Shown: positions 1,558 to 62,473, numbered from the stretch's first letter. The stretch is 64,000 bases of DNA from a virus (IMGVR_UViG_3300027754_003462); one strand, 5' to 3'. A program made the numbers and translations. The notes: generated by a model not told the origin, from the letters alone.

Positions 1558-1565
1558 GCAGGTAT

Positions 1566-33561: not shown

Positions 33562-33971
33562 AGGCAGTGGGAGTGTGGTTCCGCAGTCGGGACACCAAAC
33601 GCTATCTCTATCTCTTGAGAAACGACGTCAAGCATCCGGGTGCCTGGGGCCTGCCTGGCGGCAAGATCGAAACTGGCGAAACCTTGCTAGGTGGGATGGA
33701 ACGTGAGTGTATTGAAGAACTGGGTTTCTTTCCCACTTACTTGAGATTGATACCCTTGGAAAAGTTTACATCAGCAGATTTGGCTTTTGAATATCACACC
33801 TGGATATGTGTTGTGGACACTGAATTTGTGCCTAGACTCAACTATGAGCACTTGGGATATGCCTGGATTGACGCTGGCACTTGGCCCAAGCCCATGCATC
33901 CTGGGTTATGGAATACCATGAATATTGACGCTGTGCAACAAAAAATTCAGCAGATAGAACAGACTTTATAG
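33543..33971 (+). CDS. NUDIX hydrolase
   Basis: Nudix box GGKIETGETLLGGMERECIEELG. GGAGG SD before 33543. Confidence 0.85.
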   Translation: MESSALKAVGVWFRSRDTKRYLYLLRNDVKHPGAWGLPGGKIETGETLLGGMERECIEELGFFPTYLRLIPLEKFTSADLAFEYHTWICVVDTEFVPRLNYEHLGYAWIDAGTWPKPMHPGLWNTMNIDAVQQKIQQIEQTL

Positions 33972-34913
33972 TCTGCCGACCACAATCTCAATTGTACCTG
34001 ACACGCCGTCAAAGTTTTCCAATGCTTTGCCGATCACTGTGCCCATGGCAGGTGCGGCACTGGCTTGTGCATATCCATTGCCGGCTGTGACCATCATGTC
34101 ACCTTTGCGTATGGTACCTGTTACTGACGTTGGCACACGACCTTGAAGAGCCACTGCCACCTTGTGTTCGCTTTCAAGCACACTGTTCATCAAGTGAGCA
34201 GGGTTGGTAGATACAACTCCGGCTACTCGCGGATCAGCATTGGTAGTTGATATAGTAACTTCATTTTTGCCACCAAAAATCAACACAGTGCCTGGTGCGT
34301 ATTCAGCGTCGGTTGAATAAAGTTCTGCTAAGTCAGCGTACTGTGCTGTGGTTGCTTTGCCAAACACAGTGTTAAAATAAACTGTTGAGTTACCGATATT
34401 GCCAACACCGTTGGCATTGTTGTTGACAATATTACCGGCACTAACGTTGCCAGTTGATACGGTTAAACTTGAGCCTGTGATGGCCGCGCCTGTAATTGCG
34501 CCAGTTGCAGAAATCAATCCACCTGTCAAGATGTTGCCACCAGTTACGTTAGCAGTTACTGATACAACTGCACCCAAATGACTCGAACCGGTGATAGTAC
34601 CGGTTGCTGATACTAAGCCACCTGTCAACACATTACCACCAGTTACGTTGGCTGTTGCCGAAATCACTCCACCTGTCAATACATTACCACCGGTTATGTT
34701 GGCAGCACTGGTTATGGTTGATGTTGCTGATATCAACCCACCAGTGAGCAAGTTACCACCGGTTACGTTGCCTGAGAATGTCGCAGTAGAAACAACCAGC
34801 GTGCCAATGATGTTTCCGCCGTAGATGTTGCCTGTAGCGGAGATAATACCGGCACTGGATATGATATTACCTGTTGCTGATATTCCTGTTGTGCCGTCTA
34901 GTGATAATGCCAT
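33966..34913 (-). CDS. Short repeat fibre protein with C-terminal YADLAE domain (S74-like chaperone/autocleavage type)
   Basis: TGGN repeats followed by AQYADLAE..VAGVVST.PA.LMN..GRVP..KGD..IGKALE. Confidence 0.7.
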   Translation of the reverse strand: MALSLDGTTGISATGNIISSAGIISATGNIYGGNIIGTLVVSTATFSGNVTGGNLLTGGLISATSTITSAANITGGNVLTGGVISATANVTGGNVLTGGLVSATGTITGSSHLGAVVSVTANVTGGNILTGGLISATGAITGAAITGSSLTVSTGNVSAGNIVNNNANGVGNIGNSTVYFNTVFGKATTAQYADLAELYSTDAEYAPGTVLIFGGKNEVTISTTNADPRVAGVVSTNPAHLMNSVLESEHKVAVALQGRVPTSVTGTIRKGDMMVTAGNGYAQASAAPAMGTVIGKALENFDGVSGTIEIVVGRL

Positions 34914-34934
34914 TCTAATTAGTCCTTGCTGTAT

Positions 34935-37900
34935 TTATGGTGCGTAAACATATAGCGTCGAAGCATCGGGCACTGTAATGTTGTATCCAGTTGCAATTGT
35001 AACCGGACCCAATAGCAGTGCATTTACAGCATTTGCCACAGTTACGTTGGCTTCCAGAGTCTTTGGCCCTGCAAATGACCCATACATGGTCAAACTGCCC
35101 AGATTAATAACCACAGTGTTTGATGCCCCGCCCACGCTCATGGCAATATTGCCCGAAGCAGCCGGAATAGTGATATTTGTAGAACCGTTTGCAATTCTGT
35201 CCGCAGTACCTGCGCTGAGTCCGGTTAAAAACGCACCATTTCCAACATAATAATTAGCAGTAATATTGCCAGTTGCTGAAATTTGTCCAGCAGTTAAAAT
35301 GTTACCACCAGTGATGTTGGCTGTAACTGATACCACAGCACCCAGATGACTTGTGCCAGTTACTGTGCCTGTTGCTGATATTAGTCCGCCGGTTAATAAA
35401 TTGCCGCCAGTGGTATTGCCACTAACAGTGACCGAAGTCAGTGTGCCAACACTTGTGATGTTTGGTTGTGCGGCGGTGGTCACTGTGCCAGCAGTGGTTG
35501 CGCTTGTTGCTGTGGTTGCACTGCCCACAGTTAACGATGAGGCAGTGCCCGTCAATCCAGTTCCTGCACCACTAAATGATGATCCAGTTATAGTACCTGT
35601 GGCTGATATCAGGCCACCCGTCAACAAGTTACCACCGGTTACGTTAGCAGTTACGCTTACTACAGCACCCAAATGACTTGTGCCAGTAATAGTACCAGCG
35701 GCACTGATCAGGCCACCTGTCAAGATATTACCACCCGTAACGTTACCTGTGGCACTAAGTGTGGTTCCAGAAATTACGTTAGCGCCTGAAATATTACCAC
35801 CCGACCCGCTGGTAATGATATTTCCACCTGTAACGTTGCCTGTGGCACTAACAAGTCCACCTGTTAGTACGTTGCCACCTGTAACGTTGGCAGCACTTGT
35901 GATTGTTGAAGTGGCTGATATTAATCCTCCAGTTAAGATGTTACCACCTGTGATGTTAGCCACCGCTGATACAATGGCGCCGGATAACAAGTTACCGCCA
36001 GTTATGTTGGCTGTGGCACTTACAAGCCCACCTGTCAGCAAGTTACCACCTGTGATGTTGGCTGTTACTGATACAACTGCACCCTGGTGACTTGTGCCAG
36101 TGATAGTACCGGCTGCTGATACTAAGCCACCTGTCAGCAAGTTGCCACCTGTGATGTTGGCAGCACTTGTGATTGTTGATGTGGCACTTACAAGCCCACC
36201 TGTCAGCAAGTTACCACCTGTGATGTTGGCTGCCGATATAATGTTTCCACTTGCTGAAACAATACCAGTTACATATTCACCAGTTGTAGCAAACACCGCC
36301 ACATTACTTGTTCCACCGACTCCAACAGAGACATTGCCACCTGAACTCACAACGCTGACGTTTGATGTACCACTGACTATCTGTGTAGGAGTTCCGGTAG
36401 CAATACCAGTTAACTGTGATCCGTTACCAATAAAGAAGTTACCAGAGACGTTACCAGTTGCACTTATAAGTCCAGCAGTTAAGATATTGCCACCAGTTAC
36501 GTTGGCTGTGACTGATACCACAGCACCCAAATGACTTGTGCCAGTTACAGTACCTGCGGCACTGATCAGTCCACCTGTTAATAAATTACTACCTGTGATG
36601 TTGGCAGCACTTATGATTGTTGATGTTGCTGATATTAATCCAGCAGTTAATAGGTTGCCACCAGAAACGTTGGCTGTTACAGCCAAACTGCCCAGTGTAC
36701 CAACTGAAGTGATAGCAGTTTGTGCGGCAGTGGTCAATGTGCCAGTCAAGTTGGTGGCACTAACTAGAGTCGCACCAGTCAAGTTACCTGCTGTAATGTT
36801 ACCAGTTACTGCCAGTGATGTCAGAGTTCCAACACTAGTGATATTACCTTGTGCCGCTGTGGTCACTGTACCTGCTGTGGTTGCTGATGTAGCAGTGGTT
36901 GCACTGCCCACAGTCAACGATGAAGCAGTACCGGTCAATCCAGTTCCTGCACCACTAAACGATGATGCGGTCACAGCACCTGTGGCCGATATTAGGCCTG
37001 CTGTTCTTATGTTGCCACCTTGTATGTTGCCAGTAACGCTCAAAATACCAGTAGGTATATTGGTTTGTCCTGTGCCATTCACATTTAGATTGATGTTGCC
37101 GTTGGCTGAGGTATTGACCCACAACTCGCCCCCGTTAACGATGTTGCCAGTTAAACTTATGTTGCCTGCACTAATGATTGCACCAGTTGCCGAAATCAAT
37201 CCAGCAGTTAGTAAGTTTCCACCGGTTACATTACCGGTTGCGGTGATCAATCCAGCTGTCAACAAGTTACCACCTGTTATGTTGGCAGCACTTGTAATGG
37301 TTGATGTAGCACTGAGTAGGCCACCAGTGAGCAAGTTGCCCCCAGTGATATTGCCTGTACCACTAGCAACACCAGATCCAAACAACAAATTACCCGCAGT
37401 TATATTACCCGTGGTTGATACTGGGTTTGTACCCAAGGCAGCCAGGTTGGCCACAACGTTGGCATTGCCATAACTTGAGGCGATCCCAGTCAGTTGTGAA
37501 CCATTGCCAATGAAAACATTGCCAGAAATGTTACCGGTTGCTGATATCAGCCCACCTGTCAACAAGTTACCACCTGTGACGTTGGCAGCAGCCGAGATTA
37601 GGCCACCAGTTAGTAAGTTACCGCCGGTAATATTTGCTGATACACTTACCACAGCACCCAAATGACTTGAACCAGTTACAGTACCAGTTGCTGAGACTAA
37701 TCCACCAGTTAAGACATTGCCACCAATGATGTTGGCACCACTGGTAATAGTCGATGTAGCACTTATTAAACCACCTGTCAATACATTGCCGCCGGTTACG
37801 TTGGCTGTGGCACTTATTAATCCAGCAGTTAATACATTGCCACCTGTGATATTTGCCGCTGACGTAATAGTTGATGTGGCTGATATCAATCCACCAGTTA

Positions 37901-40900
37901 GTAAATTACCACCTGTGATGTTGCCCACAGCACTGGCTGTGGTTGCAATCTGTGCGGCATTCAAATAGGCTGTGCCCCAGTAATTACTAGGACCACCAAA
38001 AGCCAAAGTGGCGTTGGCTGCGGGTGTGACAGCAATATTACTTTGCCAACTTGTGGTGGTGTTGTTGAATCTCCAGGTGGCCAAGTTGTTGTTACCAACA
38101 TCTAGACCAGCATTGTTCAGTGCGGCACCTGTGTTTTGATTGTTACCAACAGTGATGTTGAGATCATTGGTGGTAATTGTGTTTGAATTGATGGTTGTGG
38201 TATTGCCGTAAACTGTCAGATTACCATAGATAATGGCATCGCCTGTGTTGCCAGTTCCGATACTCAATGATCCGCCTGTGACCGCACCCACTGCCGAAAC
38301 TTGTCCAGCAGTCAATATATTACCACCGGTTATATTGGCAGCACTTGTGATTGTTGATGTTGCCGATATCAATCCAGCGGTTAGCAAGTTGCCACCGGTG
38401 ATGTTGGCAGTTGCTGATACAATAGCCGCAGATAATAAATTTCCACCAGTTACGTTGGCTGTGACACTTACCACAGCACCCAAATGACTCGAACCAGTGA
38501 TAGTACCGGTTGCTGATACTAAACCGCCTGTTAATAAATTACCACCAGTTACATTGGCGGCACTTGTGATTGTTGATGTAGCACTTACTAGGCCACCTGT
38601 CAATACATTACCACCAGTTACATTGGCAGTAACACTTACTACTGTGCCCAGGAAACTTGAACCAGTTACTGTACCTGTTGCTGATATTATGCCAGCAGTT
38701 AATACATTACCACCTGTAACGTTACCTGTTGCTGATACCAATCCAGCAGTTAATAAGTTACCGCCAGTTACGTTACCGGCCACGCTGAGTGCTGAGCCGC
38801 TGGTGTTGGCAATGGCAACAATGGTATTGCCAGTGTAACTCACTGTAGTGTTACCAGCGTTTGCGCCAATGGTCAATGTGCTGTTGCCTGCCACCCCACT
38901 AAAAATAGTCACGTTACTGGTGGAGTTGGCAACACCGTTGGCAGCAAGATTGATTGATTTGGTATTGGCACTGGATGTTGCACCTGTGCCAATGTTTAGA
39001 GTTTGTGTGGCAGTGGACTGACCAATTAAAATATTGCCGGTTTGTGTTGCGCCACCAATGGTTGTGGCGCCTGTGGTTGCATTGGTTCCAAGTAATGTAG
39101 TTGTTGACGATGTACCAACTAAACTGATGGTACTGGTTGCAATAAGGGTACTATTTGCAGATAAAGCCGTGACGCTGAGTGTTCCACTGATCGATGGACT
39201 TGCACTTAACACAACACTGCCGGATCCGGTCGCTGTGCTAAAATCAGTGAGACCAGACTCCCAATCAGCGGCGGTGGTCAGTGCTGTTCCAATACAGGTA
39301 CACATTGCAGTTGTACCTGCAAGCACTGTGATAACTGCATTTAATCCTGACGACTGAACTGTTACACTTCCAGTGCTGTTGTTAACAATATGGAATGTCC
39401 AACCTGTTTGTAATGTACTCGTTACTGGCAATACAACTGTTTGTGTAGTTGCTCCAGTAAATTGCTGATAATACGAACTTGTATTATCTAATGTAGTTGT
39501 TCCGGCTGCGGTTACAGTCGAAGTGTAGCCCATTAATGCTGCCATCGCAGCCGGAGCAGAAGTTTTTCCTGTTCCGCCGTAAGCAAGTCCAACTGCGTTT
39601 GCTGACCAAGTACCAGTTGTGAGATTTCCAACACCTGTGATATTGGTTTGACTGGCTGTGGTCAATGTACCTGCGACGCTTGTGCCCGACAGGTTACCGC
39701 CTGTGATGTTACCAGTGGCAGATATCAGGCCGCCTGTTAATAAGTTACCACCAGTAATGTTGCCTGTACCACTAGTAATACCTGCCCCAAAAAACAAATT
39801 GCCCGCAGTCACGTTACCTGTAGTTGATACTGGATTTGATCCCAAGGCAGCCAAGTTGGCCACAACGTTGGCATTGCCATATGTTCCAGTAATACCAGTC
39901 AGTTGCGAGCCATTACCAATGAACACATTGCCACTAATATTACCAGCGGCACTTATCAGGCCACCAGTCAAGATGTTACCACCAGTGACATTGGCTGCTG
40001 AAGTTATGGTTGAGGTGGCTGAAATTAATCCACCCGTTAAGAGGTTACCACCAGTGACATTGGCTGCCGAAGTTATGGTTGATGTGGCACTGATCAATCC
40101 ACTAGTGAGTAAGTTACCACCAGTGATGTTGCCTGTACCACTAGTAATACCTGATCCAAACAACAAATTACCCGCAGTTATGTTACCTGTGGTTGATACT
40201 GGGTTAGATCCCAAAGCAGCCAAGTTGGCCACAACATTGGCGTTGCCATAACTTGAGGCGATACCAGTCAGTTGTGAGCCGTTACCAATGAACACATTGC
40301 CACTAATATTACCAGCGGCACTTATCAATCCGCCTGTTAAAAAGTTTCCGCCTGTGGCGTTGGCCGTAACAGCCAGTGAACCTAATGTGCCAACGCTTGT
40401 GATATTGGTTTGACTGGCGGTGGTCAATGTACCTGCAATGCTTGTGCCCGACAAATTGCCGGCTGTGATATTGCCAGTGGCACTTATCAATCCGGCAGTT
40501 AAGATGTTACCACCTGTGATGTTACCGCTTGCACTAACAACAGCCGCAGTTATCTGAGTTGCACCGCCGGCACCTGTCAATACTGTTTGTCCACCTGCTG
40601 GATTGGTTAGCACAAGTGCTGTGGCATTGGCACTAATTGTACTGTTACCCAAATAGATTGTGCTGTTGCTCAACCACAAATCTCGCCAACGTTGTGTGTT
40701 TGAACCCAGATCATACGTGATGTTGGCAGCCGGCAATATGTTACCGATTATGTTGCCGCTGATGCTTAATCCACCTGTCAATAAGTTGCCACCAGTGATG
40801 TTACCTGTTACACTTACCACTGCGCCCAAATGACTTGTACCAGTAATTGTGCTTGCGGCACTTATTACACCACCAGTCAAGATGTTGCCACCAGTTACGT

Positions 40901-41450
40901 TGGCAGTGGCACTGATCAATCCACTGGTGTTTAGGCTACCTGCTGAAACATTTCCGGCGCTGACATTGGCCACTGTGGTATTACCACTAACACTTAAAGT
41001 TCCTGTAGCACTGATTGCACCACCTGTTAATAAGTTACCGCCAACAACGTTGGAGGTGGCACTTAAATTATTGCCAGTAATATTGCCTGACGCACTTACG
41101 ACACCTGTGATGTATTCACCTGTTGTGGCAAATACTGCCACGTTGCCAGTTCCGCCCACACCCACTGTGACGTTACCACCCGAACTTACTACTGTGACGT
41201 TAGAGGTACCGCTGGATATGTTACTAGGGTTAGTAGTGATGCCAGTTAATAGCGCACCGTTACCTAAGATGTAGTTGCCAGACACGTTGCCAACAGCACT
41301 GATGTATCCGTTTGATACCAGTGTGTTGGCCGTGATAACGTTGGCTGTGGACAGTATGCGTGTCCAGGTGTTGCCGACGTTGGAGAACTGATACGTTATG
41401 TTGTTGACAACAGCAGTTTGCCCGTTTGTCGGCGATACTGGGAAGGCCAT
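34935..41450 (-). CDS. Giant repeat fibre protein (2171 aa)
   Basis: MAFP.SPTNGQ N-terminus and dozens of TGGN(L/V/I)LT(G/A)GLISAT repeats. Confidence 0.8.
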   Translation of the reverse strand: MAFPVSPTNGQTAVVNNITYQFSNVGNTWTRILSTANVITANTLVSNGYISAVGNVSGNYILGNGALLTGITTNPSNISSGTSNVTVVSSGGNVTVGVGGTGNVAVFATTGEYITGVVSASGNITGNNLSATSNVVGGNLLTGGAISATGTLSVSGNTTVANVSAGNVSAGSLNTSGLISATANVTGGNILTGGVISAASTITGTSHLGAVVSVTGNITGGNLLTGGLSISGNIIGNILPAANITYDLGSNTQRWRDLWLSNSTIYLGNSTISANATALVLTNPAGGQTVLTGAGGATQITAAVVSASGNITGGNILTAGLISATGNITAGNLSGTSIAGTLTTASQTNITSVGTLGSLAVTANATGGNFLTGGLISAAGNISGNVFIGNGSQLTGIASSYGNANVVANLAALGSNPVSTTGNITAGNLLFGSGITSGTGNITGGNLLTSGLISATSTITSAANVTGGNLLTGGLISATSTITSAANVTGGNILTGGLISAAGNISGNVFIGNGSQLTGITGTYGNANVVANLAALGSNPVSTTGNVTAGNLFFGAGITSGTGNITGGNLLTGGLISATGNITGGNLSGTSVAGTLTTASQTNITGVGNLTTGTWSANAVGLAYGGTGKTSAPAAMAALMGYTSTVTAAGTTTLDNTSSYYQQFTGATTQTVVLPVTSTLQTGWTFHIVNNSTGSVTVQSSGLNAVITVLAGTTAMCTCIGTALTTAADWESGLTDFSTATGSGSVVLSASPSISGTLSVTALSANSTLIATSTISLVGTSSTTTLLGTNATTGATTIGGATQTGNILIGQSTATQTLNIGTGATSSANTKSINLAANGVANSTSNVTIFSGVAGNSTLTIGANAGNTTVSYTGNTIVAIANTSGSALSVAGNVTGGNLLTAGLVSATGNVTGGNVLTAGIISATGTVTGSSFLGTVVSVTANVTGGNVLTGGLVSATSTITSAANVTGGNLLTGGLVSATGTITGSSHLGAVVSVTANVTGGNLLSAAIVSATANITGGNLLTAGLISATSTITSAANITGGNILTAGQVSAVGAVTGGSLSIGTGNTGDAIIYGNLTVYGNTTTINSNTITTNDLNITVGNNQNTGAALNNAGLDVGNNNLATWRFNNTTTSWQSNIAVTPAANATLAFGGPSNYWGTAYLNAAQIATTASAVGNITGGNLLTGGLISATSTITSAANITGGNVLTAGLISATANVTGGNVLTGGLISATSTITSGANIIGGNVLTGGLVSATGTVTGSSHLGAVVSVSANITGGNLLTGGLISAAANVTGGNLLTGGLISATGNISGNVFIGNGSQLTGIASSYGNANVVANLAALGTNPVSTTGNITAGNLLFGSGVASGTGNITGGNLLTGGLLSATSTITSAANITGGNLLTAGLITATGNVTGGNLLTAGLISATGAIISAGNISLTGNIVNGGELWVNTSANGNINLNVNGTGQTNIPTGILSVTGNIQGGNIRTAGLISATGAVTASSFSGAGTGLTGTASSLTVGSATTATSATTAGTVTTAAQGNITSVGTLTSLAVTGNITAGNLTGATLVSATNLTGTLTTAAQTAITSVGTLGSLAVTANVSGGNLLTAGLISATSTIISAANITGSNLLTGGLISAAGTVTGTSHLGAVVSVTANVTGGNILTAGLISATGNVSGNFFIGNGSQLTGIATGTPTQIVSGTSNVSVVSSGGNVSVGVGGTSNVAVFATTGEYVTGIVSASGNIISAANITGGNLLTGGLVSATSTITSAANITGGNLLTGGLVSAAGTITGTSHQGAVVSVTANITGGNLLTGGLVSATANITGGNLLSGAIVSAVANITGGNILTGGLISATSTITSAANVTGGNVLTGGLVSATGNVTGGNIITSGSGGNISGANVISGTTLSATGNVTGGNILTGGLISAAGTITGTSHLGAVVSVTANVTGGNLLTGGLISATGTITGSSFSGAGTGLTGTASSLTVGSATTATSATTAGTVTTAAQPNITSVGTLTSVTVSGNTTGGNLLTGGLISATGTVTGTSHLGAVVSVTANITGGNILTAGQISATGNITANYYVGNGAFLTGLSAGTADRIANGSTNITIPAASGNIAMSVGGASNTVVINLGSLTMYGSFAGPKTLEANVTVANAVNALLLGPVTIATGYNITVPDASTLYVYAP

Positions 41451-41460
41451 TCTCTATCCT

Positions 41461-42756: not shown

Positions 42757-42767
42757 TATAAATTTCC

Positions 42768-42896: not shown

Positions 42897-42905
42897 GATA
42901 TTTCC

Positions 42906-48581: not shown

Positions 48582-48656
48582 AATTTCTCCTGTTGGTCTT
48601 TTCTACTGCTACTACTTATACCAAAACAAAATATTTTTGTGACAAGCATTTTACTA

Positions 48657-49325
48657 CTAATTTCCTAGGTTTTCTTGCTCTGCAAGCCATTCTTCACGGG
48701 TCAATTTTCGAGATTGGTCTTGTTTTTGTTGTTCTAACCACTGTTCTCGAGTCATCACTTGCGTATTTATTGTGGCCGATTGCTCTCGCAACCACTCCTC
48801 TGTGGTCATAGTGCGAGTCACTGTGACCAAGTTTGTTGGTGTTGCGCTGTGTACCGTTTTGACTTCGATCTGCGAGGCCAACCACTGTTCTCGAGTCATG
48901 GGTGTGTTTGATTGTTGCTGTTGTGCCAACCACTCATCAGCGGTCATTTTTGTTTGTTCTGCCAACCATGCTTCAACTGATATTGTGGGTGTTGTTGTTT
49001 GCTCCGCGGTCTGTTCATGGTCTGGCGAATAACGTGGATATTTTGTTTTTACTGCACGTATTCTAGCAGCCATTTCTGCGGGAAACACCCCAGCATGGTA
49101 CAAGGCATCCAGTTGTTCTTGTATAGTTGGGTACTCTCTAGCACGATTTCTTTGATATTCCGCCCAGTCATAGGCCTGTTGCAAACGCTGTTGTTCTTGA
49201 TATATTTGTTCCGCAGTGACTGGAGCAGTCGCAGGCCGGTGCCAGGTTATGGTCTGATCATACATGCTCACGCTGACTTCTGCGTCAGGTACCAAACTTT
49301 GAATAGCATGAAATACGGTTATCAT
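48657..49325 (-). CDS. Fibre-associated (assembly chaperone-like) protein with six T-x-E-x-W-L type repeats
   Basis: YQRNRAREYP.I.EQLDALYH..VK.KYP N-terminal domain and a repeat tail. ATGA overlap with the upstream fibre gene. Confidence 0.6.
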   Translation of the reverse strand: MITVFHAIQSLVPDAEVSVSMYDQTITWHRPATAPVTAEQIYQEQQRLQQAYDWAEYQRNRAREYPTIQEQLDALYHAGVFPAEMAARIRAVKTKYPRYSPDHEQTAEQTTTPTISVEAWLAEQTKMTADEWLAQQQQSNTPMTREQWLASQIEVKTVHSATPTNLVTVTRTMTTEEWLREQSATINTQVMTREQWLEQQKQDQSRKLTREEWLAEQENLGN

Positions 49326-54200: not shown

Positions 54201-57200
54201 AAGTTGCTGTGGTCCAACCTGGGTAGGCCACGTTTTGTACAAGATTACCATCTGTTGGTGTACCCAGTGTTATTGTGTTACCTTGACCACCGGCGGCAAT
54301 AACACCAGTTAGAGCAGAACCATTGCCAAGGAAATAATTACCAGAAATATTACCAGTTGCTGAAACTATTCCGGCTGTTAATATGTTGCCACCGGTTATG
54401 TTGGCTGTGGCACTGATAACACCACCTGTCAGCAAATTTCCACCGGTTACATTAGCAGTTAAACTTACACTTGTACCAGTTGCCGCGCCAATATTTGGCG
54501 TTGTGAGATTGGCACTGGCCTTGACAATAATATTGCCTGATCCATCAAACGCTGTGGTGTTGTTGTCCACCAAGGCATTGAATTGCGATCCCACAAGGCT
54601 TAGGCCAGCACTGTTGTTGGCAGTATAACTGCCGGCACTGGAGAATTGTGTCCAAACAATAGCGGTTGTGCCAATTACCACCGGCGCATTTGTAGTACAC
54701 ACATATCCAGAATCGGCATTGACTGAGCCCAACTCAACAAAAACAAATGCTCCAGGTACTTCGGCAGCCTGATTCATGTCGGCAGAACGAGTCAATACGT
54801 ATGAGGATCCTGCATCGTTGGCGGTGACTGTATAGATACCGTTGTATGGAGCATTACCACCAGTTTCATTCTTGATCAACACTCGATCACCAACTGTGGG
54901 TGAGGTTCCATCAATAGTTAATAAGCCTGAGGCAGATCCAGTTATGGTTGCACCAACTCCGGCAGTTCCGTTGTTGTAGGTATAAGCAGGTAGTGTGGTG
55001 GCTGTGGCCAAAGAAACGGATGCTTTGGGATCAAGTCCTTGCGCCACATTGTCAACATAGGCTTTGGTTGCGGCATCTTGGTCTTGCACCGGGTCAGCAA
55101 GATTTCTAATAATTTTATTGCTGACCAGAATATTTCCAACGGAGTTTAACGTCAAATCACCATTGGTAGCAATTGTCAATGAGACGCCAACTATACTATT
55201 GGTGTTAATATTGCCGCCAGTGATATTGCCAGTTGCCGAAATCAATCCACCTGTTAGGACATTGCCACCAGTTATGTTAGCGGCACTAGTGATAGTACCG
55301 GTTGCAGATATCAATCCACCTGTTAGGACATTGCCACCAGTAATATTTGCCGCACTGGTGATTGTTGATGTAGCACTGATTAATCCACCAGTTAGTAAGT
55401 TGCCGCTGATAATATTACCAGTTGCTGTGATTAAACCTGCGGTTTGTAAATTACCAACAGTTGCATTGCCAGTTGCTGTGATTAGTCCGGCGGTAATTAA
55501 GTTGCCACCAGTAATATTGGCTGCCGAAGTAATGGTTGAAGTAGCACTGATTAGGCCACCGCTAAGTAAATTACCAGTTGTGGTATTGCCGCTAACACTT
55601 AAACTTGTTAATATGCCAACACTTGTAATATTGGCTTGTGCATTGTTTGTTACTGTTCCTGCTGAATCAGCATAGGTAGCATTGGCCACGGTGCCTGTTA
55701 CGTTGGCACCAGTTAAACTTGTTAACCCAGCACCATTGCCAATGAACACATTGCCTTGGATGTTGCCTATTGCTGATATTAGCCCACCAGTTAATACATT
55801 ACCACCAATTATGTTGGCAGCACTGGTAATAGTCGATGTGGCTGATATAAGACCAGCAGTTAAAACGTTGCCGCCGGTAACATTGCCACTTGCACTCAAT
55901 ACGCCAGTGATGTATTCTCCAGTTGTGGCAAACACAGCAACATTTGCTGTTCCTCCGACTCCAACAGTGATGTTGCCACCCGAACTCACAACGGTAACAT
56001 TACTTGTGCCATTATTAATATTGGCAACGCTTGTGATAACGCCGGTCAACAGCGCACCATTACCGAGAATATAGTTACCACTTACATTGCCTACAGCACT
56101 TATCAATCCGCCTGTTATAACATTGCCACCAGTTACATTCGAAGTTGTTGTTACAGGGCCAGTTAAGCTGACCAGGTTGCCAGAATATGTTGGCAAGTAA
56201 TTGGCCACATCGGTATTTGAGTATCCTGCTGGTAAGCCAGTAATTAGAGCACCATTGCCCAGCAAATAGTTGCCGGCAATGTTGCCAGTGGCACTTACTT
56301 GTCCAGTAATGTAGGCACCAGTAGGGGCAAAAACCGCAACATTACTAGTTCCAGTTACACCAACTGTGACATTACCGTTTGCATTGACTGTGACGTTGCT
56401 GTTGCCGTTTGTGATTGCGGCGCCAGCACTTGCTATAATACCTGTCAGTTGCGAGCCGTTACCAATGAAGTAATTGCCTGTGACATTGCCAGTGGTCCTA
56501 ATGTTACCAACTGCACTTATTGTACCACCAGTGAGTAAATTCCCAGTTTGAGTATTACCAGTCACGCTTAGATTTGCCAGTACGCCAACTTCGCTTGCTT
56601 GTATTCCAGTCAGTTGACGACCATTACCAATAAAGTAATTTGTGGTTGTAATGTTGCCAGTAGCACTCACCACTCCAGCAGTTAATAAGTTGCCACCGGT
56701 GGCATTGCCAGTGACAGTAACTGAAGTTAAGGTGCCAACTGAGGTAATGTTGGGTTGTGCCGCCGTGGTCACTGTGCCTGCTGTGGTTGCCGATCCAGCG
56801 GTAACAGCGTAGGTAGCATTGGCCACGGTACCCGTGACATTGGCACCTGCTACGGTGTTTGCTGTATTAGCGTAGGTGGCTGTGGTTGCGGTGCCAGCGG
56901 TTACGGCATAGGTGGCATTGGCCACAGAGCCTGTGATATTTCCGCCTGGTATATTGGTTAGACCGGCACCTGATCCAATAAACCGCCCAGTGGTAGTGAT
57001 ATTACCAACAACGTCTAAGTATAATAAATCATCTACAACTTTTAAACTTGAATACAATACATTAGAACTTAGTACATCACCAATCAATGCGTTGGCATTG
57101 ACATTTGTTGCAGACACCCCTGTTAGTAATGCGCCGTTACCAATAAAGTAATTGCCAGTTATGTTTCCAACGGCACTGATTTTACCGCCAGTTAGTATAT

Positions 57201-58686
57201 TTCCTGCGGTGGTATTGCCTGACACCGCAACCGATGTCAAGGTACCAACTGAAGTTATATTAGGTTGTGCGGCAGTAGTTACTGTACCTGCGGTAGTGGC
57301 AGTTGTTGCTGTGGTAGCACTACCAGCGGTAGTAGCATAAGTGGCATTGGCCACGGTGCCAGATACATTTGCACCAGCCACAGCATTTGCCGTATTGGCA
57401 TATGTGGCAGTATTGGCGGTATTAGCACTGGTGGCACTACCAGCGATAGTAGCGTAGGTAGCATTGGCCACAGTACCTGTGACATTGGCTCCTGCGACCG
57501 AATATGCTGTACCTGCTATGTTAGCATAGGTGGCATTGGCCACCGACCCTACTATATTAGCACCCAGTAGGTTGGTTAAGCCGGCACCCGAACCGATAAA
57601 TCTGCCTTGAGTAGTTACATTACCAACCACATCCAAATACAGTAGATCATCTACTACTTGCAGACTTGAGTATAATACATTTGAACTGAGTGTGGTTCCC
57701 ACCAAAGCATTGGCATTCACACCCGAAGTTGATATACCAGTTAGTAATGCACCGTTACCAATAAAGTAATTGCCAGTGATATTACCAGTTGCAGTCAACG
57801 AAGTCAGTGTACCAACTGAAGTAATGTTTGGTTGTGCATTGGTATACACTGTGCCTGCTATGGCGGCGTTGGCAACTTGTCCAGTAACATTGGCTGCTGG
57901 TATATTTGTTAACCCTGCACCAGATCCAATAAATCTACCCTGAGTTGTTACATTACCAACCACATCTAGATACAGTAGATCATCTACAACTTGCAGACTT
58001 GAGTATAATACATTGGAACTGAGTGTGGTTCCAGTCAGCGCCGCGGCTGCAATATTGGTTGCGGTTATGCCTGTTAAGAAAGCACCATTGCCAATAAAAT
58101 AATTACCAGCAACATTGGCGGTGGTGGTTATGTTGCCAACAGCAGAAATGCGGCCTGAACTGATTAAGTTGTTGCCGGTAATGTTGGCCACACTTGTGAT
58201 ATTGCCAGTCACTCCCAAGAAGCCGCCGGTAATGACATTACCAGCCACAACGTTGGCTGTGGTTATAACTGGGCCAGTTAAGCTAACAAGATTACCAGTA
58301 TATGTGGGCAAGAAGGCTGCTACATTGGCATTGTTATACGTGGTATTAGCCACAATTCCAGTGATTAATGCACCGTTACCAACTAGGTAATCACCATAGA
58401 TATATTGAAATGTTCTGTCCGGGGCGCCAAGATCGTAAACACCTGATGTGCCAGGAACAATGGTACTATTGGCTTGTATGTTGCCAATACCGTTGCCGGC
58501 CAGAGTTAGCCCTAGATTAGTAACTGTGGTAGTAACTATGTTGCCAGAGATTTTTACTTGACTGCCAACCGGACCGGCAGTCCAGATCTGCGTAAAATTG
58601 TCATTTACTGCGGTAAATGCTTCGCGTAAGGGCTCACCTGTGCCATCGTTGGCATTTGCCCCTACATCTATTATCTGTTGTGTCAT
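51232..58686 (-). CDS. Giant virion fibre/adhesin (2484 aa) with PKD-like domains
   Basis: IDVG..ANDGTGEPLR.AF..N.NF anchor motif, TGGN repeats and WQFGDG/WGDG/YGDG/WTWGD PKD-like motifs. Confidence 0.8.
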   Translation of the reverse strand: MTQQIIDVGANANDGTGEPLREAFTAVNDNFTQIWTAGPVGSQVKISGNIVTTTVTNLGLTLAGNGIGNIQANSTIVPGTSGVYDLGAPDRTFQYIYGDYLVGNGALITGIVANTTYNNANVAAFLPTYTGNLVSLTGPVITTANVVAGNVITGGFLGVTGNITSVANITGNNLISSGRISAVGNITTTANVAGNYFIGNGAFLTGITATNIAAAALTGTTLSSNVLYSSLQVVDDLLYLDVVGNVTTQGRFIGSGAGLTNIPAANVTGQVANAAIAGTVYTNAQPNITSVGTLTSLTATGNITGNYFIGNGALLTGISTSGVNANALVGTTLSSNVLYSSLQVVDDLLYLDVVGNVTTQGRFIGSGAGLTNLLGANIVGSVANATYANIAGTAYSVAGANVTGTVANATYATIAGSATSANTANTATYANTANAVAGANVSGTVANATYATTAGSATTATTATTAGTVTTAAQPNITSVGTLTSVAVSGNTTAGNILTGGKISAVGNITGNYFIGNGALLTGVSATNVNANALIGDVLSSNVLYSSLKVVDDLLYLDVVGNITTTGRFIGSGAGLTNIPGGNITGSVANATYAVTAGTATTATYANTANTVAGANVTGTVANATYAVTAGSATTAGTVTTAAQPNITSVGTLTSVTVTGNATGGNLLTAGVVSATGNITTTNYFIGNGRQLTGIQASEVGVLANLSVTGNTQTGNLLTGGTISAVGNIRTTGNVTGNYFIGNGSQLTGIIASAGAAITNGNSNVTVNANGNVTVGVTGTSNVAVFAPTGAYITGQVSATGNIAGNYLLGNGALITGLPAGYSNTDVANYLPTYSGNLVSLTGPVTTTSNVTGGNVITGGLISAVGNVSGNYILGNGALLTGVITSVANINNGTSNVTVVSSGGNITVGVGGTANVAVFATTGEYITGVLSASGNVTGGNVLTAGLISATSTITSAANIIGGNVLTGGLISAIGNIQGNVFIGNGAGLTSLTGANVTGTVANATYADSAGTVTNNAQANITSVGILTSLSVSGNTTTGNLLSGGLISATSTITSAANITGGNLITAGLITATGNATVGNLQTAGLITATGNIISGNLLTGGLISATSTITSAANITGGNVLTGGLISATGTITSAANITGGNVLTGGLISATGNITGGNINTNSIVGVSLTIATNGDLTLNSVGNILVSNKIIRNLADPVQDQDAATKAYVDNVAQGLDPKASVSLATATTLPAYTYNNGTAGVGATITGSASGLLTIDGTSPTVGDRVLIKNETGGNAPYNGIYTVTANDAGSSYVLTRSADMNQAAEVPGAFVFVELGSVNADSGYVCTTNAPVVIGTTAIVWTQFSSAGSYTANNSAGLSLVGSQFNALVDNNTTAFDGSGNIIVKASANLTTPNIGAATGTSVSLTANVTGGNLLTGGVISATANITGGNILTAGIVSATGNISGNYFLGNGSALTGVIAAGGQGNTITLGTPTDGNLVQNVAYPGWTTATFVTDGLDDLNQVALNIANSTYVGNAYITANVSSGPSPLSVALTGRYVGNPNAYLWQFGDGTANATTANAVHTFSNVSGGTFTVTYTAYNTNGTYNGNVANGAKGSTSTASTTITLYTPTPIPSFTANRTTLDTPGGVLITNSSLYAETYSINWGDGTIVIPANNWTTASHTFTNATANTDVLYGVNLTGNSANAGATPVSVTSSNTNVKVYSSQASNVFVTANRANVINGSGVISFRNDSNGAPGNTASFGAQQYYYLNYGDGNVSNVVVASGTAGNPGAANVTNTFALSAANQSGNIYQQFTANLSLYTGYSTSPFKSGNITITIEPQTRANFVGTTANVTTNATANTGNARVGYLYTDYNGANRSTFTFQNTSENSNIANWTWGDATFSNGVSNVGNTLHTYTGTGAFTVSLQANGTPNGITSTAQSNTLSTTGYIFIAANPTAPTALSGFANLTIANASQGTSPLLAAGAADASGGNIPANGTSVTRFATTATITTSANVQNANTAVTGTLTAYVNNTAAGNVSFSNVSNTVGTSGALVVSADQDLHVANAAVPSYFYKVFSANVSCTLSSLSTGYNNYKMVHSVSGNTNYVGFVKDNLNTAPSLVTSNVLMVESTAGTYRYISGIPYYNTGSPAITIANLEVSNLAGQTYTSATPFTLASGTVYEGSGAVLSATQTKTLAQLDNAGNSMLTGSNVKANIGVSANYTFGNLTGNITGANNSVSTLQANVLNVIGTGTTVQLPTKIQMYAGANSGVNEQSITCTPTANTQAAIRIVMSTAGNTPVFSDSTNYYTANAWSGAQTIAGTPEAVVRYGVLTQYAVDLSTGYLPVGPNLSITGGRTSTQYFTFAFARPSLANFDIRLTTTTGVAGVWVAAPGTTIDKSGFSSPTPGFPGPTSTINGWLETYTQYAGSGVPGAASGTGGNGSNGCALTGADVIPLNTAIANVGYTMTLGSQNAANSTGNNILIRIALASGQSITALSIGVAA

Positions 58687-58741
58687 AGGTAAACCATATC
58701 CTCTGGGGTATTTACCTAAACCCCACAGTCTAAGTTTTTGG

Positions 58742-59326
58742 CTATATTTCTTTGTTTACTAGACGATTTTGAAAATCTGCCATTTGCATGTGTGCTAGAT
58801 TGGCTACCCCTAACAATTCACGTACCTCTGCAGTGGTATCTCCCACTACTCTAAAGAAACTAGTCTTGGGATGGTCTTTCATTATGGTTTGTAACTGTCT
58901 GACCCAGTTGCCAGTAAAAGTGGGATTGGCAGAACTTTTTTTGTAGAACTCTGTGTCAGCATAGCAGTTATTAAATCTGCCGGTGCGTGTAGGACCTAGG
59001 TCAAATCCTATTAGATATATAGCCGTTGCCCCATCAATTGCGGCTTGTGATACCGCTACAGGTCCAGAACTGTAGCCAAAGTATTTTTGTGCTATTCGTC
59101 TTGCGCCAGAGTCTGGCAATGGCTTGCGTGTGTAATAAGTGTTTTTCTGGCTATAGCCTTCGTGCTGAATTCTTTCACTTATGGGGGTGTCTGTGCTGAT
59201 CAACACATCGGGCACAAACTCACGATAGATAGCATTGCACCCATAGGTGATTCCTAGTGTTTTCAACGTTGTTAAATCTACTGCTTGTCGGCTTATGCCG
59301 TTACCTAACACAAATGCTGCGGCCAT
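58742..59326 (-). CDS. CstII/Maf-like (GT42/GT29/DUF115-type) glycosyltransferase-fold protein
   Basis: VLGNGIS, GCNAIY and SSG..A...A...G...IYLIGFD match the motif order of CstII-type sialyltransferases. Confidence 0.6.
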   Translation of the reverse strand: MAAAFVLGNGISRQAVDLTTLKTLGITYGCNAIYREFVPDVLISTDTPISERIQHEGYSQKNTYYTRKPLPDSGARRIAQKYFGYSSGPVAVSQAAIDGATAIYLIGFDLGPTRTGRFNNCYADTEFYKKSSANPTFTGNWVRQLQTIMKDHPKTSFFRVVGDTTAEVRELLGVANLAHMQMADFQNRLVNKEI

Positions 59327-59360
59327 AAAAAAATCCTCCCAGTATATAGCCAGGAGGATT
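59327..59360 (-). terminator. Terminator hairpin with TATATA in the loop and the SD in the 3' arm
   Basis: AATCCTCCTGG-CTATATA-CTGGGAGGATT-TTTTT-ATG. Confidence 0.75.
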
Positions 59361-59375
59361 GTTGGGGGTTACAAA

Positions 59376-60215
59376 TTAACTTGTAACGCTGGCAATCTGT
59401 GCCAATTGCAATGTACCGTTTTGTGCTTGAGCACTAGAAATAACTTCTGCACCAGACCATGTGACATTACCTTCATCAGTAAAGAAGTTTGTTACGTAGA
59501 AGTTTTCACTAGATTGTACGTTTGTGCCAAGATTAGCGTTAGCATAGCTGGCAGTTGTCATACCGTTCCAGTCACGTACCCACTTGTTAGTAATGTAACT
59601 AGCATATACTGCGCTCGAGTCGCCCACCGAGTAAGCAATGCTCATGTAACCAGATGCCGGAGTGGCGGTGTTAGACAACACACACTGACCGACTGGGTAT
59701 GCTGTGCCTGATCCAGAACCGATAGCAGTAACAGTAAATACGTCGCCAACTGCGGCGCCGTTTGGTGCACCACATGCTTGCCAATTTGTTGTTCCAAGAA
59801 CGGCAATTTGATAGGCTTGACCAATGATCATGTCTTCATCAGCAGTGGTTGCGTATGTGTATGCAACCAGAAACTTGTGTGAACCTTTTTGGCGGATAAT
59901 ACGACCTGTATATTGACTAGCAAGAGCATATGTGGCAGTACCGTCTGCCAGGGTAATGTTTACTTTTGCGGCAATTTCTGGAAATGTTGCGCTGGCAGTG
60001 CTGGTAGCAGGTGAGCCACCAACCACACCCAAGAACTGAGTGCTATCTAGTGTTTGAACTGGTGTGTTGTAAACTGGATCTGTTAACGATCCAAAGTTAG
60101 GAAAACCAGCGTCTGTCAAGACGTTTTGGTTGTATGAGGTAACCACTGGATCAGATCCAGAAACAGTGGTTCCAGAACCAATGTTTGTTTTTTGTATTTT
60201 AAGAGCTCTTCCCAT
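59376..60215 (-). CDS. Probable virion structural protein
   Basis: MGR.LK start with strong TAAGGAG SD, IIRQKGSHKFLV motif, T/S/A/G-rich. Late promoter upstream. Confidence 0.65.
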   Translation of the reverse strand: MGRALKIQKTNIGSGTTVSGSDPVVTSYNQNVLTDAGFPNFGSLTDPVYNTPVQTLDSTQFLGVVGGSPATSTASATFPEIAAKVNITLADGTATYALASQYTGRIIRQKGSHKFLVAYTYATTADEDMIIGQAYQIAVLGTTNWQACGAPNGAAVGDVFTVTAIGSGSGTAYPVGQCVLSNTATPASGYMSIAYSVGDSSAVYASYITNKWVRDWNGMTTASYANANLGTNVQSSENFYVTNFFTDEGNVTWSGAEVISSAQAQNGTLQLAQIASVTS

Positions 60216-60349
60216 TTGATTTCTCCTTATAGAAGCCCAATGTGCGTTCCAGGCACTACGCAGGGGAAACCTGCATAAAACACCGTATTGTGTTGACAAG
60301 TATTTAGCGAAAATGTAAAATAGAATGTCACCACAGCGTAAATATCCCT

Positions 60350-61504
60350 ATGAACCAACAACAAATAGATTTAATCGAACAAGGCAATCAACATCGTGCC
60401 AATCACGAACCTGAAAAATCACTAAAATGTTATGCACAGGTTTTAGTTGACGACCCCGATAATGCCGCGGCATTTTGTAACTATGGCAACGTCATGCGTG
60501 AGTTGGGTTATCCCAAACGTGCTATACCATTTTTACAACATTCTATTCTATTGGATCCTTCTAACATTACTGCACAGTTTAATTTAGCAGTGGCATACCT
60601 GCTGACGGGTGACTATCAACGCGGGTGGGCGCAATACGAAACTCGTTGGCAATTTGAGCACTTGCAAGGTACTGAACCAAAATTCTCACAGCCACGCTGG
60701 CGTGGTGAAGATATTCGAGACAAAACTATTCTTGTGGTGGGCGAGCAAGGTCACGGAGACTGTGTTCAGTTTTCAAGATTTATTTTTAACTTGCATGCCA
60801 TGGGTGCTCGAATCAAATTACAAGTCACCGACGGATTGATCCCGTTGCTGAGTCAGAGCAACATTATAGAACATGTGGGTAGATACAACGAAGACATGGG
60901 CGAGTTTGATTACTGGGTTCCTATCATGAGTGTTCCTGGTATATTGGGCATCACATTAGATAACTTGCCACGAATGCAAAACTATCTTACTGCTACTCCG
61001 GCATTGACAAAAGCATGGCAAGATAGACTAGGTCCTAAAAAACGCATGCGGGTGGGTGTGAGTTGGAGTGGGCGCAAAGATTCTTGGATACATCAACACA
61101 AGAGTGTGCCGTTTCCGGTGATACTAGAAATGATTCAATCTAATCCTCAATACGAATGGATCAATCTACAAGTTGACGTGTCACCCGAAGAAGAGGCACA
61201 GTTAAATCAAGTTGGTGTCACTGGATATCCTGGAACAATTGTTAGTTTTGCTGACACAGCCGCATTGATCATGCACATGGATGTGGTGATATCTGTTGAC
61301 ACTGCCATCAGTCATTTGAGTGGCGCACTAGGTAGACCCACCTGGGTGATGTTGAATCAGTACGGACAGGACTGGCGTTGGTTGTTGGATCGCAACAATA
61401 GTCCTTGGTATCCTACTGCCACTTTGTTTAGACAACCCACACGCGGTGACTGGGCCAGTGTCACTAAAAAGATTGCTCAATACTTGTCATGGTATAAGGT
61501 TTAA
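60350..61504 (+). CDS. TPR-repeat plus GT-B (GT9/heptosyltransferase-like) glycosyltransferase
   Basis: N-terminal TPRs, EQGHGD..QF.RF, GVSWSG, FADTAA..DVVISVDT..HL.GALG.P and DWRW..SPWYP. Confidence 0.8.
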   Translation: MNQQQIDLIEQGNQHRANHEPEKSLKCYAQVLVDDPDNAAAFCNYGNVMRELGYPKRAIPFLQHSILLDPSNITAQFNLAVAYLLTGDYQRGWAQYETRWQFEHLQGTEPKFSQPRWRGEDIRDKTILVVGEQGHGDCVQFSRFIFNLHAMGARIKLQVTDGLIPLLSQSNIIEHVGRYNEDMGEFDYWVPIMSVPGILGITLDNLPRMQNYLTATPALTKAWQDRLGPKKRMRVGVSWSGRKDSWIHQHKSVPFPVILEMIQSNPQYEWINLQVDVSPEEEAQLNQVGVTGYPGTIVSFADTAALIMHMDVVISVDTAISHLSGALGRPTWVMLNQYGQDWRWLLDRNNSPWYPTATLFRQPTRGDWASVTKKIAQYLSWYKV

Positions 61505-62402
61505 ATTGATCCATTTGAATCATAATTTTGTTTCTAAATTTTTCGCTATGAAAATATTGTTTGTTATGTTCCACTCGATCTAACACTCGATAATAATCAT
61601 CTAATATAGTTCCACTGAGAACCCATTGCTCCGTAAAATCAGCAATTTTTTGAAGTCTGACAGTAGAGTTAGTTTCATTATCCCACGACTCCCAGGGCAC
61701 AATATCTCTAAACATATCTAGTCCTATATCCTGTAAAAATTTATTAACTCCTGGGCCACAGGCAATAATTGGAATTTGTCTAGCCATAAATGGTTTGCAA
61801 GTTTTTTCGCTTATCCATGATTGGTCTATTACTGTTTCAGTTACAAGATTCACTGCATACTGATTGTAAACTGCATGGCCAAGGCCATAAAATCCATCAT
61901 TCATTTGTCTATTCTCTAGACTTTCTCCCGGTAACACACGATAGTTAGCAAACGTATACATCATTTGATCTAATATATTTTTACGTTGAAATTCTTCAAA
62001 CAAATATGTTCGATGAGGTCGAGTGTTATTGTTTAGGCACATAACTTTTTGTGTTTTATTTGAGCCGGCATCCATAACAAATCTAGGCCACCAAAGATTT
62101 GCTCTCAAGCTGAACATCCATAAAAATATTGGGAAAAAATATACACCCGGTTTAGGTTGTAACCAAAATTCAAAATTGTTAGTCAATATTGGGTCTATGT
62201 TGGTTGGTATTTTATTATCTGGATAAGGATTATGCGTTATATCTACAACTTGATTTTTCAAAGGGTGAGTAGATAGCAAGTTTAATGTTTCGTCACAGTT
62301 TTCAAAATCGTTGTCTGTTATTACTAATGTATCTTCTAACAACCATTGTGTAAGATAAGTTCGATTGGTATAAAAACGTTCAGGGTTTAAATGATATATC
62401 AT
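61464..62402 (-). CDS. Putative glycosyltransferase (GT10/GT-B-like), AT-rich
   Basis: NLVTET..ISEKT.KP...Q.PI..G resembles the E(N)..(T/S)EK donor-binding motif of GT10. Start set at MIYHL. Confidence 0.45.
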   Translation of the reverse strand: MIYHLNPERFYTNRTYLTQWLLEDTLVITDNDFENCDETLNLLSTHPLKNQVVDITHNPYPDNKIPTNIDPILTNNFEFWLQPKPGVYFFPIFLWMFSLRANLWWPRFVMDAGSNKTQKVMCLNNNTRPHRTYLFEEFQRKNILDQMMYTFANYRVLPGESLENRQMNDGFYGLGHAVYNQYAVNLVTETVIDQSWISEKTCKPFMARQIPIIACGPGVNKFLQDIGLDMFRDIVPWESWDNETNSTVRLQKIADFTEQWVLSGTILDDYYRVLDRVEHNKQYFHSEKFRNKIMIQMDQFKPYTMTSIEQSF

Positions 62403-62418
62403 TGAGTATATAGCCAAC

Positions 62419-62441: not shown

Positions 62442-62473
62442 CTTGCCTTCCCATCTCACGGTGAATTTTTTTC

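Follow-up and report, generated by a model that had tools for sequence, protein, structure and literature searches.

Maf proteins are glycosyltransferases (GTs) that work in the cytoplasm on Ser and Thr residues of a filament protein. The usual donor route for Maf and for the Caulobacter enzyme FlmG runs through a NeuB-type synthase and a CMP-sugar synthetase; FlmG uses CMP-Pse or CMP-Leg, whereas GT9 enzymes typically use ADP-heptose. The bacterial autotransporter heptosyltransferases (BAHTs; Aah and TibC) are cytoplasmic enzymes of the GT9 type and reportedly transfer heptose to Ser residues within the short, uncharged beta-helix repeats from which giant adhesins are built (Lu et al., 2014, cited in PMC7591256). 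FlmG binds flagellin through N-terminal tetratricopeptide repeats (TPRs) and O-glycosylates it in the cytoplasm with a C-terminal GT-B domain, and Maf enzymes require a TPR of their own or a partner such as GlfM for acceptor binding (PMC7591256; bioRxiv 10.1101/2023.12.03.569772). Among phages, proof that virions are glycosylated by enzymes of the phage itself has so far come from mycobacteriophages alone (Freeman et al., 2023, cited in PMC12619734).

A locus that recalls these systems lies in the viral sequence IMGVR_UViG_3300027754_003462, of which a stretch of 64,000 nucleotides (the window) was analysed. Its source is an uncultured jumbo T4-like phage; the window comprises a late module of T4 type (large terminase, sheath of 1,159 aa, tube and neck proteins, sheath stabiliser, UvsX and single-stranded DNA-binding protein) and the 3′ part of gp23, the T4-type major capsid gene (63335..64000, minus strand, encoding the C-terminal half; PF07068, E 8e-62). 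Downstream of gp23 follow a variable slot that here contains the GT-B gene D345, then C384, which joins TPRs to a GT9-like domain, B307, the Maf-like gene A194 and six fibre genes. Because the Maf-like core and the FlmG-like TPR/GT-B protein resemble cytoplasmic protein O-glycosyltransferases, and because the gene order is conserved, virion glycosylation is a reasonable and plausible reading of this locus. Its specific form, late cytoplasmic O-glycosylation of virion proteins, is a serious possibility that falls somewhat short of being probable. As in the mycobacteriophages, phage GTs lie beside structural genes; there the glycans are found on virion proteins, whereas here genes alone are known. 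The mycobacteriophage case also differs in its GT families, its Gram-positive-type host, its acceptors (capsid and tail-tube C-termini) and its experimental proof (Freeman et al., 2023, cited in PMC12619734).

A Maf-like core and a GT9-like protein with TPRs

A194 (58742..59326, minus strand) encodes a very conserved, stand-alone Maf/CstII domain of 194 aa (MAF_flag10, DUF115-like), assigned from an AlphaFold2 (AF2) model and its structure matches. The model has a predicted local distance difference test (pLDDT) score of 87 and superposes on the central catalytic domain of Maf. Structural alignment with VIA-align places Maf 5mu5_A first (Z 13.1, root-mean-square deviation (rmsd) 3.5 Å over 168 of the 194 residues), 3.5 Z above the next family, followed by Cst-I (Z 9.6), archaeal HPPK (Z 9.3) and thiamin pyrophosphokinases (Z about 8). 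CstII heads the Foldseek matches (E 2.6e-5, TM 0.53–0.56), among which Maf has a probability of 1.00. A194 shares with GT42 (CstII/Cst-I) both the fold and the N-terminal nucleotide-binding GNG motif (G8, N9, G10), which is invariant in the A194 family together with several Asp residues; H179 is nearly invariant. At the profile level, the GT42 match covers residues 1–36 only (E 0.02–0.06), and the Pfam MptE-like family (PF01973) scores 11.8 bits, below its gathering score of 34.6, with CST-I also under threshold. Five of 22 family members match PF01973 (best E 0.012). A194 has 1,647 homologues, of which the top 120 are all exactly 194 aa long. Unlike Maf, A194 is the domain only, with neither the Maf flanking domains nor a TPR, and the nonulosonic-acid pathway was not found in a near-complete relative of this phage.

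The pyrophosphokinase matches bear on a different reading, in which some or all of the putative GTs have another role: they might hypermodify DNA bases, for example, or A194 might catalyse a reaction of the pyrophosphokinase type in cofactor metabolism. D345 likewise aligns with T4 DNA alpha-glucosyltransferase (Z 8.9, as with many GT-B enzymes), and phage GTs often glycosylate DNA, as an excerpt of PMC12619734 has it (Pyle et al., 2024, cited in PMC12619734). Such a role is quite improbable, since Maf scores clearly over HPPK for A194 (Z 13.1 vs. 9.3), a TPR domain is not expected in a DNA enzyme, and the late-type motif in this block (see below) suits structural rather than replication timing.

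C384 (60350..61504, plus strand, divergent) encodes three to four TPRs (about residues 5–95; Pfam TPR families) and then a GT9-like C-terminal domain. The GT9 family PF01075 scores 25.9 bits against a cut-off of 22, with residues 299–331 aligned to profile positions 173–205 only, and the NCBIfam models for heptosyltransferase I, RfaC and RfaQ stay below threshold. C384 homologues carry the same Pfam set. In PDB sequence searches the catalytic part matched just WaaC (E 0.9 over 34 aa), the full-length profile search was swamped by TPR matches, and neither TibC nor Aah matched C384. The likeness to FlmG is one of layout, with the same order of N-terminal TPR and C-terminal GT-B domain and a similar size class; the catalytic domain of C384 differs in scoring as GT9-like. 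The likeness to the BAHTs is that the window has fibres made of repeats together with a GT9-like gene and an rfaE-II-like nucleotidyltransferase; the BAHTs themselves have no TPR.

The catalytic domain of C384 (60632–61501) belongs to a family of 38,141 clusters (50% identity), 14,871 of them at E<=1e-30, for which a limited literature search found no functional description. Its best matches are proteins of 1,000–3,000 aa with two to six tandem TPR-GT modules, and a TPR is present in all sampled members (P0481, P0501, P0508, P0494 and P0361, four of them distant and one a 63% relative). Two unrelated phages encode C384 homologues at 26–28% identity, both inside structural modules. The homologue of Synechococcus phage BUCT-ZZ01 is flanked by genes for a tail fibre with 21% Thr, a BNR protein and a 2,097-aa protein. 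In the podovirus ctDrO704 from spring water (8620–12053), the homologue directly follows the capsid gene, in a row with an FkbM methyltransferase and a galT-like gene. Because of the FlmG-like layout and these placements, C384 is the best candidate among the GT-like genes for a link to the fibres. The TPR-GT/FkbM/galT-like row of ctDrO704 is, in its own right, a second candidate virion-glycan module.

Between C384 and A194 lies B307 (59376..60215, minus strand), which encodes a Ser/Thr/Ala-rich protein of 279 aa that is not GT-like. It has no match in Pfam, PHROG, NCBIfam or PDB, and the Atlas matches are viral hypotheticals only. B307 is present in 43 of 43 syntenic loci, always between the same two genes.

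Gene order, the variable slot and the donor supply

A scan of IMG/VR with A194 gave 68 loci, and the genomic contexts of related loci, including the contigs G001–G003 of relatives, were drawn from the same database. In 43 of these loci (A194 at least 61% identical), the order gp23, slot, C384 (reverse), B307, A194 and fibres is invariant as far as the contigs reach. The capsid protein gp23 is 98–100% identical across 40 related loci. Metagenomes are rich in relatives, among them a 343-kb IMG/VR contig rated 99% complete (G001). The nearest isolate capsids are those of jumbo phages (Sinorhizobium phage Phosso, 78%; PA5oct and CBB, 68–72%); the capsid-gene neighbourhood of Phosso has no comparable gene cluster, and a megablast of positions 58000–64000 against isolate phages gave no match at the DNA level. 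The "moraphage" of PMC12619734 appears to be a different lineage, going by its description in an excerpt of that paper only.

The linkage of GTs to fibres is uneven across the three genes. C384 and the uncharged fibres are found together in essentially one clade, so their co-occurrence counts as one evolutionary event. A194 reaches further. At 35–48% identity, its homologues lie between portal and prohead protease, scaffold or capsid genes in distant loci (L047, L049, L058 and L061) that have neither C384 nor B307 and in which gp23 is followed by charged fibres of the ordinary kind; G003, the contig behind one of these loci, also has no GT8 gene. The genes uvsY and uvsW flank the A194 homologue of Pelagibacter phage HTVC008M (77489–78319), and the capsid gene is 2 kb away. 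Because the distant homologues sit between portal and prohead genes where C384, B307 and uncharged fibres are absent, or between uvsY and uvsW, A194 is not fibre-specific; by its distribution, it belongs to the old and strongly conserved genes that aquatic T4-like phages keep in core and head regions. A194-family genes in other aquatic T4-like phages are annotated as hypothetical only.

D345 (61464..62402, minus strand) encodes a GT-B protein closest to GT10 alpha-1,3-fucosyltransferases and is an accessory gene. Its AF2 model (pLDDT 91) matches FUT9 and the Helicobacter pylori FucT in Foldseek (E 3e-5), and VIA-align gives HpFucT Z scores of 12.2, 12.1 and 11.0 (2nzw/2nzx; best rmsd 4.0 over 253 aa), the plant FucT13 10.9 and the human FUT9 10.0. 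Other GT-B families score Z 9–10, at most 10.2, which is within about 2 Z of the best GT10 match, and identity to GT10 enzymes is 11–15%. No Pfam family, and so no PF00852, matches D345 at E <=0.01, its homologues have no precomputed Pfam assignment, and tblastn found no match in isolate phages. The lengths of the homologues agree with an ATG at 62402, and E189, T190, E199 and K200 are invariant among them, a spacing (E-T...E-K) that we take to be that of the GT10 nucleotide-sugar motif. The initial annotation had named a CstII/Maf-like GT, a TPR-GT9-like GT and a GT10-like gene immediately upstream of the fibres. All three identities stand, at the fold level for A194 (Maf Z 13.1, CstII E 2.6e-5) and D345 (HpFucT Z 12.2, PF00852 absent) and through the TPR families and a short stretch of PF01075 above cut-off for C384. 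Three GT-like genes do lie beside the fibres, but the gene at 59376–60215 among them is not GT-like.

The slot between gp23 and C384 (61464–63335 in the window; loci L001–L043) is hypervariable, and its empty version measures 68–89 bp. D345-type genes, in two deeply divergent alleles, fill it in 12 of 36 readable loci. In the window it also contains an HNH/NUMOD3 homing endonuclease gene (62474..63235, minus strand; Pfam), which is found in few related loci. Elsewhere its cargo includes HNH or GIY-YIG homing endonucleases, a 231-aa radical S-adenosylmethionine (SAM) protein, a 366–418-aa family that is frequent in the slot and for which searches gave no identification, a TANGO2-like gene and a fatty-acid desaturase. 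A slot reserved for glycan genes is ruled out by the homing endonuclease, radical SAM, desaturase and TANGO2 cargo. Because the slot is a cargo hotspot, the adjacency of D345 to the fibres is weak evidence of a shared function. The co-occurrence of GTs and fibres, which the initial annotation had proposed to follow across phage genomes, thus holds as a gene order kept in 43 loci; it is confined to essentially one clade, with the A194 family found elsewhere in the absence of such fibres and D345 in a cargo slot.

Judging from its motifs and gene content, the block downstream of gp23 is a late-expressed structural block. The canonical T4 late consensus TATAAATA is absent from the window. TAAATA occurs 33 times. 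The zones that reach 120 nt upstream from same-strand gene starts take up 4.4% of the sequence and contain 17 of the 33 copies. Copies are found ahead of C384 (11 nt from its ATG), of D345 and B307, and of the first fibre gene. A194 has none; a hairpin whose loop reads TATATA lies in front of it. Of the late-type promoters assigned earlier to each of the three GTs, those of C384 and D345 are therefore retained in the form of TAAATA, and that of A194 is not. TAAATA-N4-6-ATG arrangements are seen at many genes (e.g., 8145, 12775, 19068, 30071, 60339 and 63246). If transcription begins a few bases past TAAATA, as at T4 late promoters, the late mRNAs would be leaderless or nearly so.

Other glycan genes lie away from the fibres. 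The window start, as annotated before, carries a GT8-like gene (116..832, minus strand; PF01501, 28.7 bits) and a nucleotide-sugar enzyme (802..1626, minus strand), a cytidylyltransferase-like nucleotidyltransferase fused to a phosphomannose isomerase (PMI)-type cupin (PF01467 + PF01050). The best NCBIfam match of the latter is rfaE domain II (75 bits vs. a cut-off of 181), and TIGR00125 passes. The GT8-like gene borders a glycan-gene island and is 33 kb away from the fibres; its homologues are 78–82% identical in G001 and G002, and the nucleotidyltransferase-cupin has a 70% homologue in G001. Within 6 kb of the pair, G001 encodes GT2-like, FkbM methyltransferase and GT25 genes, and a GT4 gene elsewhere. 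The GT8-like homologue in G001 (G001:C1:294807-295511) reads through two in-frame TGA codons, which may reflect a broken gene, an assembly frameshift or recoding. Neither a NeuB-type synthase (PF03102) nor a CMP-sugar synthetase (PF02348) was found in G001 or in the other two contigs, so a Maf-like enzyme would depend on CMP-sugars of the host. Kdo is accepted by one Maf, according to an excerpt of PMC11339370.

These genes also bear on the main rival explanation, in which the GTs remodel the host envelope: their substrates would be intermediates of the host lipopolysaccharide (LPS) core, O-antigen or capsule on the cytoplasmic side, with export by host flippases, and they would block superinfection or otherwise change the surface, and the adjacency to the fibres would be incidental. 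GT9, GT8, GT25, GT10 and CstII-type families are classically enzymes of LPS or lipooligosaccharide (LOS) synthesis (Pfam descriptions; CstII/Cst-I matches), GT-rich large cyanophages have been read as host cell-surface modifiers (PMC12801897), the D345 slot also houses auxiliary metabolic genes, and the GT8 and nucleotidyltransferase genes, 33 kb off the fibres, stand beside recombination genes. Envelope remodelling nevertheless seems somewhat unlikely. The TPR fusion in all sampled C384 relatives suggests a protein partner, the best match of A194 is a protein GT and not an LOS enzyme, and the late-type motif and placement in structural modules recur in three unrelated phages; remodelling of the surface late in the lytic cycle would presumably be of little obvious benefit.

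The fibre genes and their N-X-S/T triplets

The six fibre open reading frames (ORFs) on the minus strand encode proteins of 315, 2171, 431, 1891, 636 and 2484 aa, which sum to 7,928 aa over about 25 kb. The earlier description of six giant, nearly uncharged fibre genes of about 7,900 aa is borne out by these ORFs, whose products are 1–8% charged (D+E+K+R). They are rich in Gly (12–17%), Thr (14–18%), Asn (8–11%), Ser (9–11%) and also Ala, Ser and Thr together make up 27–29% of the giant fibres, and repeats recur at lags of 17 and 23 aa. Searches of the repeats against Pfam, PHROG, NCBIfam, PDB sequences and Atlas-type collections yielded no match.

The first gene of the array encodes the 2484-aa giant (51232..58686) and has TAAATA 28 nt upstream; its N-terminal 47 aa resemble the "baseplate wedge tail fiber connector" of cyanophages, and its orthologues are 70–88% identical in nine loci (L001–L009). 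The 636-aa gene (49322..51232; phrog_9417, 9.5e-38) has an N-terminal region of 185 aa homologous to the "tail protein" of phiCbK-like and other large phages (tblastn, 53 phage records). The 1891-aa giant (42906..48581) shares its N-terminus with the 2171-aa protein and its C-terminal domain with the 315- and 431-aa proteins. Residues 292–428 of the 431-aa protein (41461..42756; PHROG matches), which has the same C-terminal domain as the 315-aa protein, match proteins of PA5oct (annotated as a virion structural protein), Phosso, Atu_ph07 and Campylobacter phages. The 2171-aa giant (34935..41450) is 1% charged, consists of 17/23-aa repeats and has no Pfam match, and its N-terminus gave no tblastn match in isolate phages. 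The 315-aa gene (33966..34913) combines repeats with the shared C-terminal domain of about 140 aa, which matches phrog_19602 ("tail fiber protein"), phrog_6427 and phrog_22593. From this homology of the end domains, and from it only, the six repeat genes very probably encode tail-associated fibres.

The fibres are also dense in N-X-S/T triplets (sequons), from which glycosylation had been argued. They contain 314 sequons in 7,928 aa, a density of 4.0 per 100 aa; in the remaining 12,531 aa of the window the density is 0.83. The fibres thereby have about 1.5 times as many sequons as their own composition predicts. Measured against composition shuffles, the three giants have z scores of 6.5, 5.1 and 4.1, while the 431- and 636-aa genes reach 2.2 and the 315-aa gene 0.07; the 2171-aa fibre, for instance, has 102 sequons where 63 are expected. 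However, the motif N[IV][TS]GGN alone accounts for 95 of the 314 sequons, and copies of a repeat do not count as independent samples, so the excess over shuffled controls, genuine as it is in the three giants, traces to the repeat consensus. At position +2 from Asn, Thr is enriched 1.9-fold and Leu 2.2-fold, whereas Ser is depleted (0.8-fold). In 11 orthologous fibre alignments at 60–88% identity, retention was 79.1% for Thr at +2 vs. 80.2% for all Thr, 84.7% for the S/T class at +2 vs. 85.0% overall, and 92% for Asn within sequons vs. 91% for Asn in N-x-L. Because sequon Thr and Asn are no better kept than other Thr and Asn, no sequon-specific constraint is apparent.

N-linked glycosylation of these triplets is thus unlikely, and in the style of HMW1C it is highly improbable. 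The density of sequons and their 1.5-fold excess over composition speak for it. Set against these are the enrichment at +2 of Thr and equally of Leu but not Ser, the lack of extra conservation, and the enzymes themselves: no GT fold found here belongs to a known N-glycosyltransferase type, and no GT41/HMW1C-type domain (PF13844) was detected in the scanned window proteins, in G001 or in G002, as the initial annotation had itself cautioned for HMW1C. The sequon argument accordingly falls. The Asn residues of the triplets are better read as a structural part of the repeat, with an Asn ladder of a solenoid as the simpler reading.

A gene of a different kind lies within the array (48657..49325, minus strand). 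It encodes a Gln/Glu-rich protein of 222 aa with five T-x-E-x-W-L repeats and zero sequons, matches phrog_9114 over its N-terminal 98 aa and may be a fibre chaperone or assembly factor. It overlaps the stop codon of the 636-aa fibre gene (ATGA) and is kept after the homologue of that gene in L007. Elsewhere in the window, a pair of radical SAM paralogues whose genes overlap (392 and 379 aa; 10478–12765) is situated directly upstream of the large terminase.

A possible route to glycosylated virions

If the O-glycosylation reading is right, virion proteins would be modified on Ser and Thr in the host cytoplasm before assembly, much as flagellin is. C384 would pick the protein acceptor through its TPRs and add a sugar through its GT-B domain. 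A194, consisting of a Maf-type catalytic core only, would attach a sugar or lengthen an existing one, possibly with the help of an acceptor-binding partner, and D345, where present, would cap the glycan and so produce variation from strain to strain. The giant fibres, given their Ser and Thr content, would be the most plausible acceptor of C384, and that of A194 may be a more widely conserved virion protein.

The last point leads to an alternative in which the virion is glycosylated on something other than the giant fibres, be it the capsid, a decoration protein or the Ser/Thr-rich B307. Distant A194 homologues between portal and prohead genes or near gp23, in phages that have no such fibres, are consistent with it, as are the invariable position of B307 between C384 and A194 and the mycobacteriophage precedent, in which, as an excerpt of PMC12619734 has it, capsid and tail-tube subunits are modified (Freeman et al., 2023, cited in PMC12619734). 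An acceptor of this kind is nonetheless improbable: C384 and the uncharged fibres have the same clade distribution, the fibres offer by far the largest Ser/Thr surface, and fibre genes also adjoin the C384 homologue of BUCT-ZZ01.

Late O-glycosylation of virion proteins is supported by the fold and profile assignments of the three GT-like proteins, the Maf match of A194, the FlmG-like layout of C384 and the coupling of its catalytic domain to TPRs, the gene order of the 43 loci, the structural modules that house C384 homologues in two unrelated phages, the TAAATA copies, and the further GT, methyltransferase and NDP-sugar genes of the lineage. Several observations weigh against it. The fold of A194 is also that of archaeal HPPK and thiamin pyrophosphokinases (Z 8–9), and its homologues in distant phages adjoin head or recombination genes where there are no such fibres. 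The Pfam GT9 match spans just 33 residues of C384, which accompanies uncharged fibres in essentially one clade only. D345 shares its slot with homing endonucleases and with radical SAM, desaturase and TANGO2 genes, the sequon positions are under no special constraint in the orthologue alignments, and the 99% complete G001 has no NeuB-type or CMP-sugar synthetase gene. The glycosylated fibre coat built by the phage, as first proposed, therefore keeps its GT fold and hidden Markov model assignments, its conserved gene order and its resemblance to protein O-glycosyltransferases; it loses the sequon argument, the adjacency of D345 and the link of A194 to the fibres.

A bolder version holds that a widespread clade of uncultured aquatic jumbo T4-like phages carries a flagellin-type O-glycosylation kit, a bare Maf-like core with an FlmG-like TPR-GT, that has no nonulosonate pathway encoded by the phage and so draws on host donors (speculatively CMP-Kdo, ADP-heptose or GDP-fucose) to coat some 8,000 aa of fibres, while a swappable GT slot by the capsid gene diversifies the glycan between strains in the manner of an O-antigen. 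Taken as a whole, this is rather unlikely.

The GT genes of large aquatic phages are routinely read as modifiers of the host surface or of DNA. A conserved pair in the late module that resembles the two known classes of flagellin O-glycosyltransferase offers a concrete, cloneable test of whether phages of Gram-negative-type hosts coat their fibres with sugar. If true, phage virion glycosylation would extend beyond the mycobacteriophages in a new variant, with relevance for how freshwater phages, which are abundant, recognise their hosts, stick and withstand proteases, and it would provide a first handle on the very large, uncharacterised family of TPR-GT9-like proteins.

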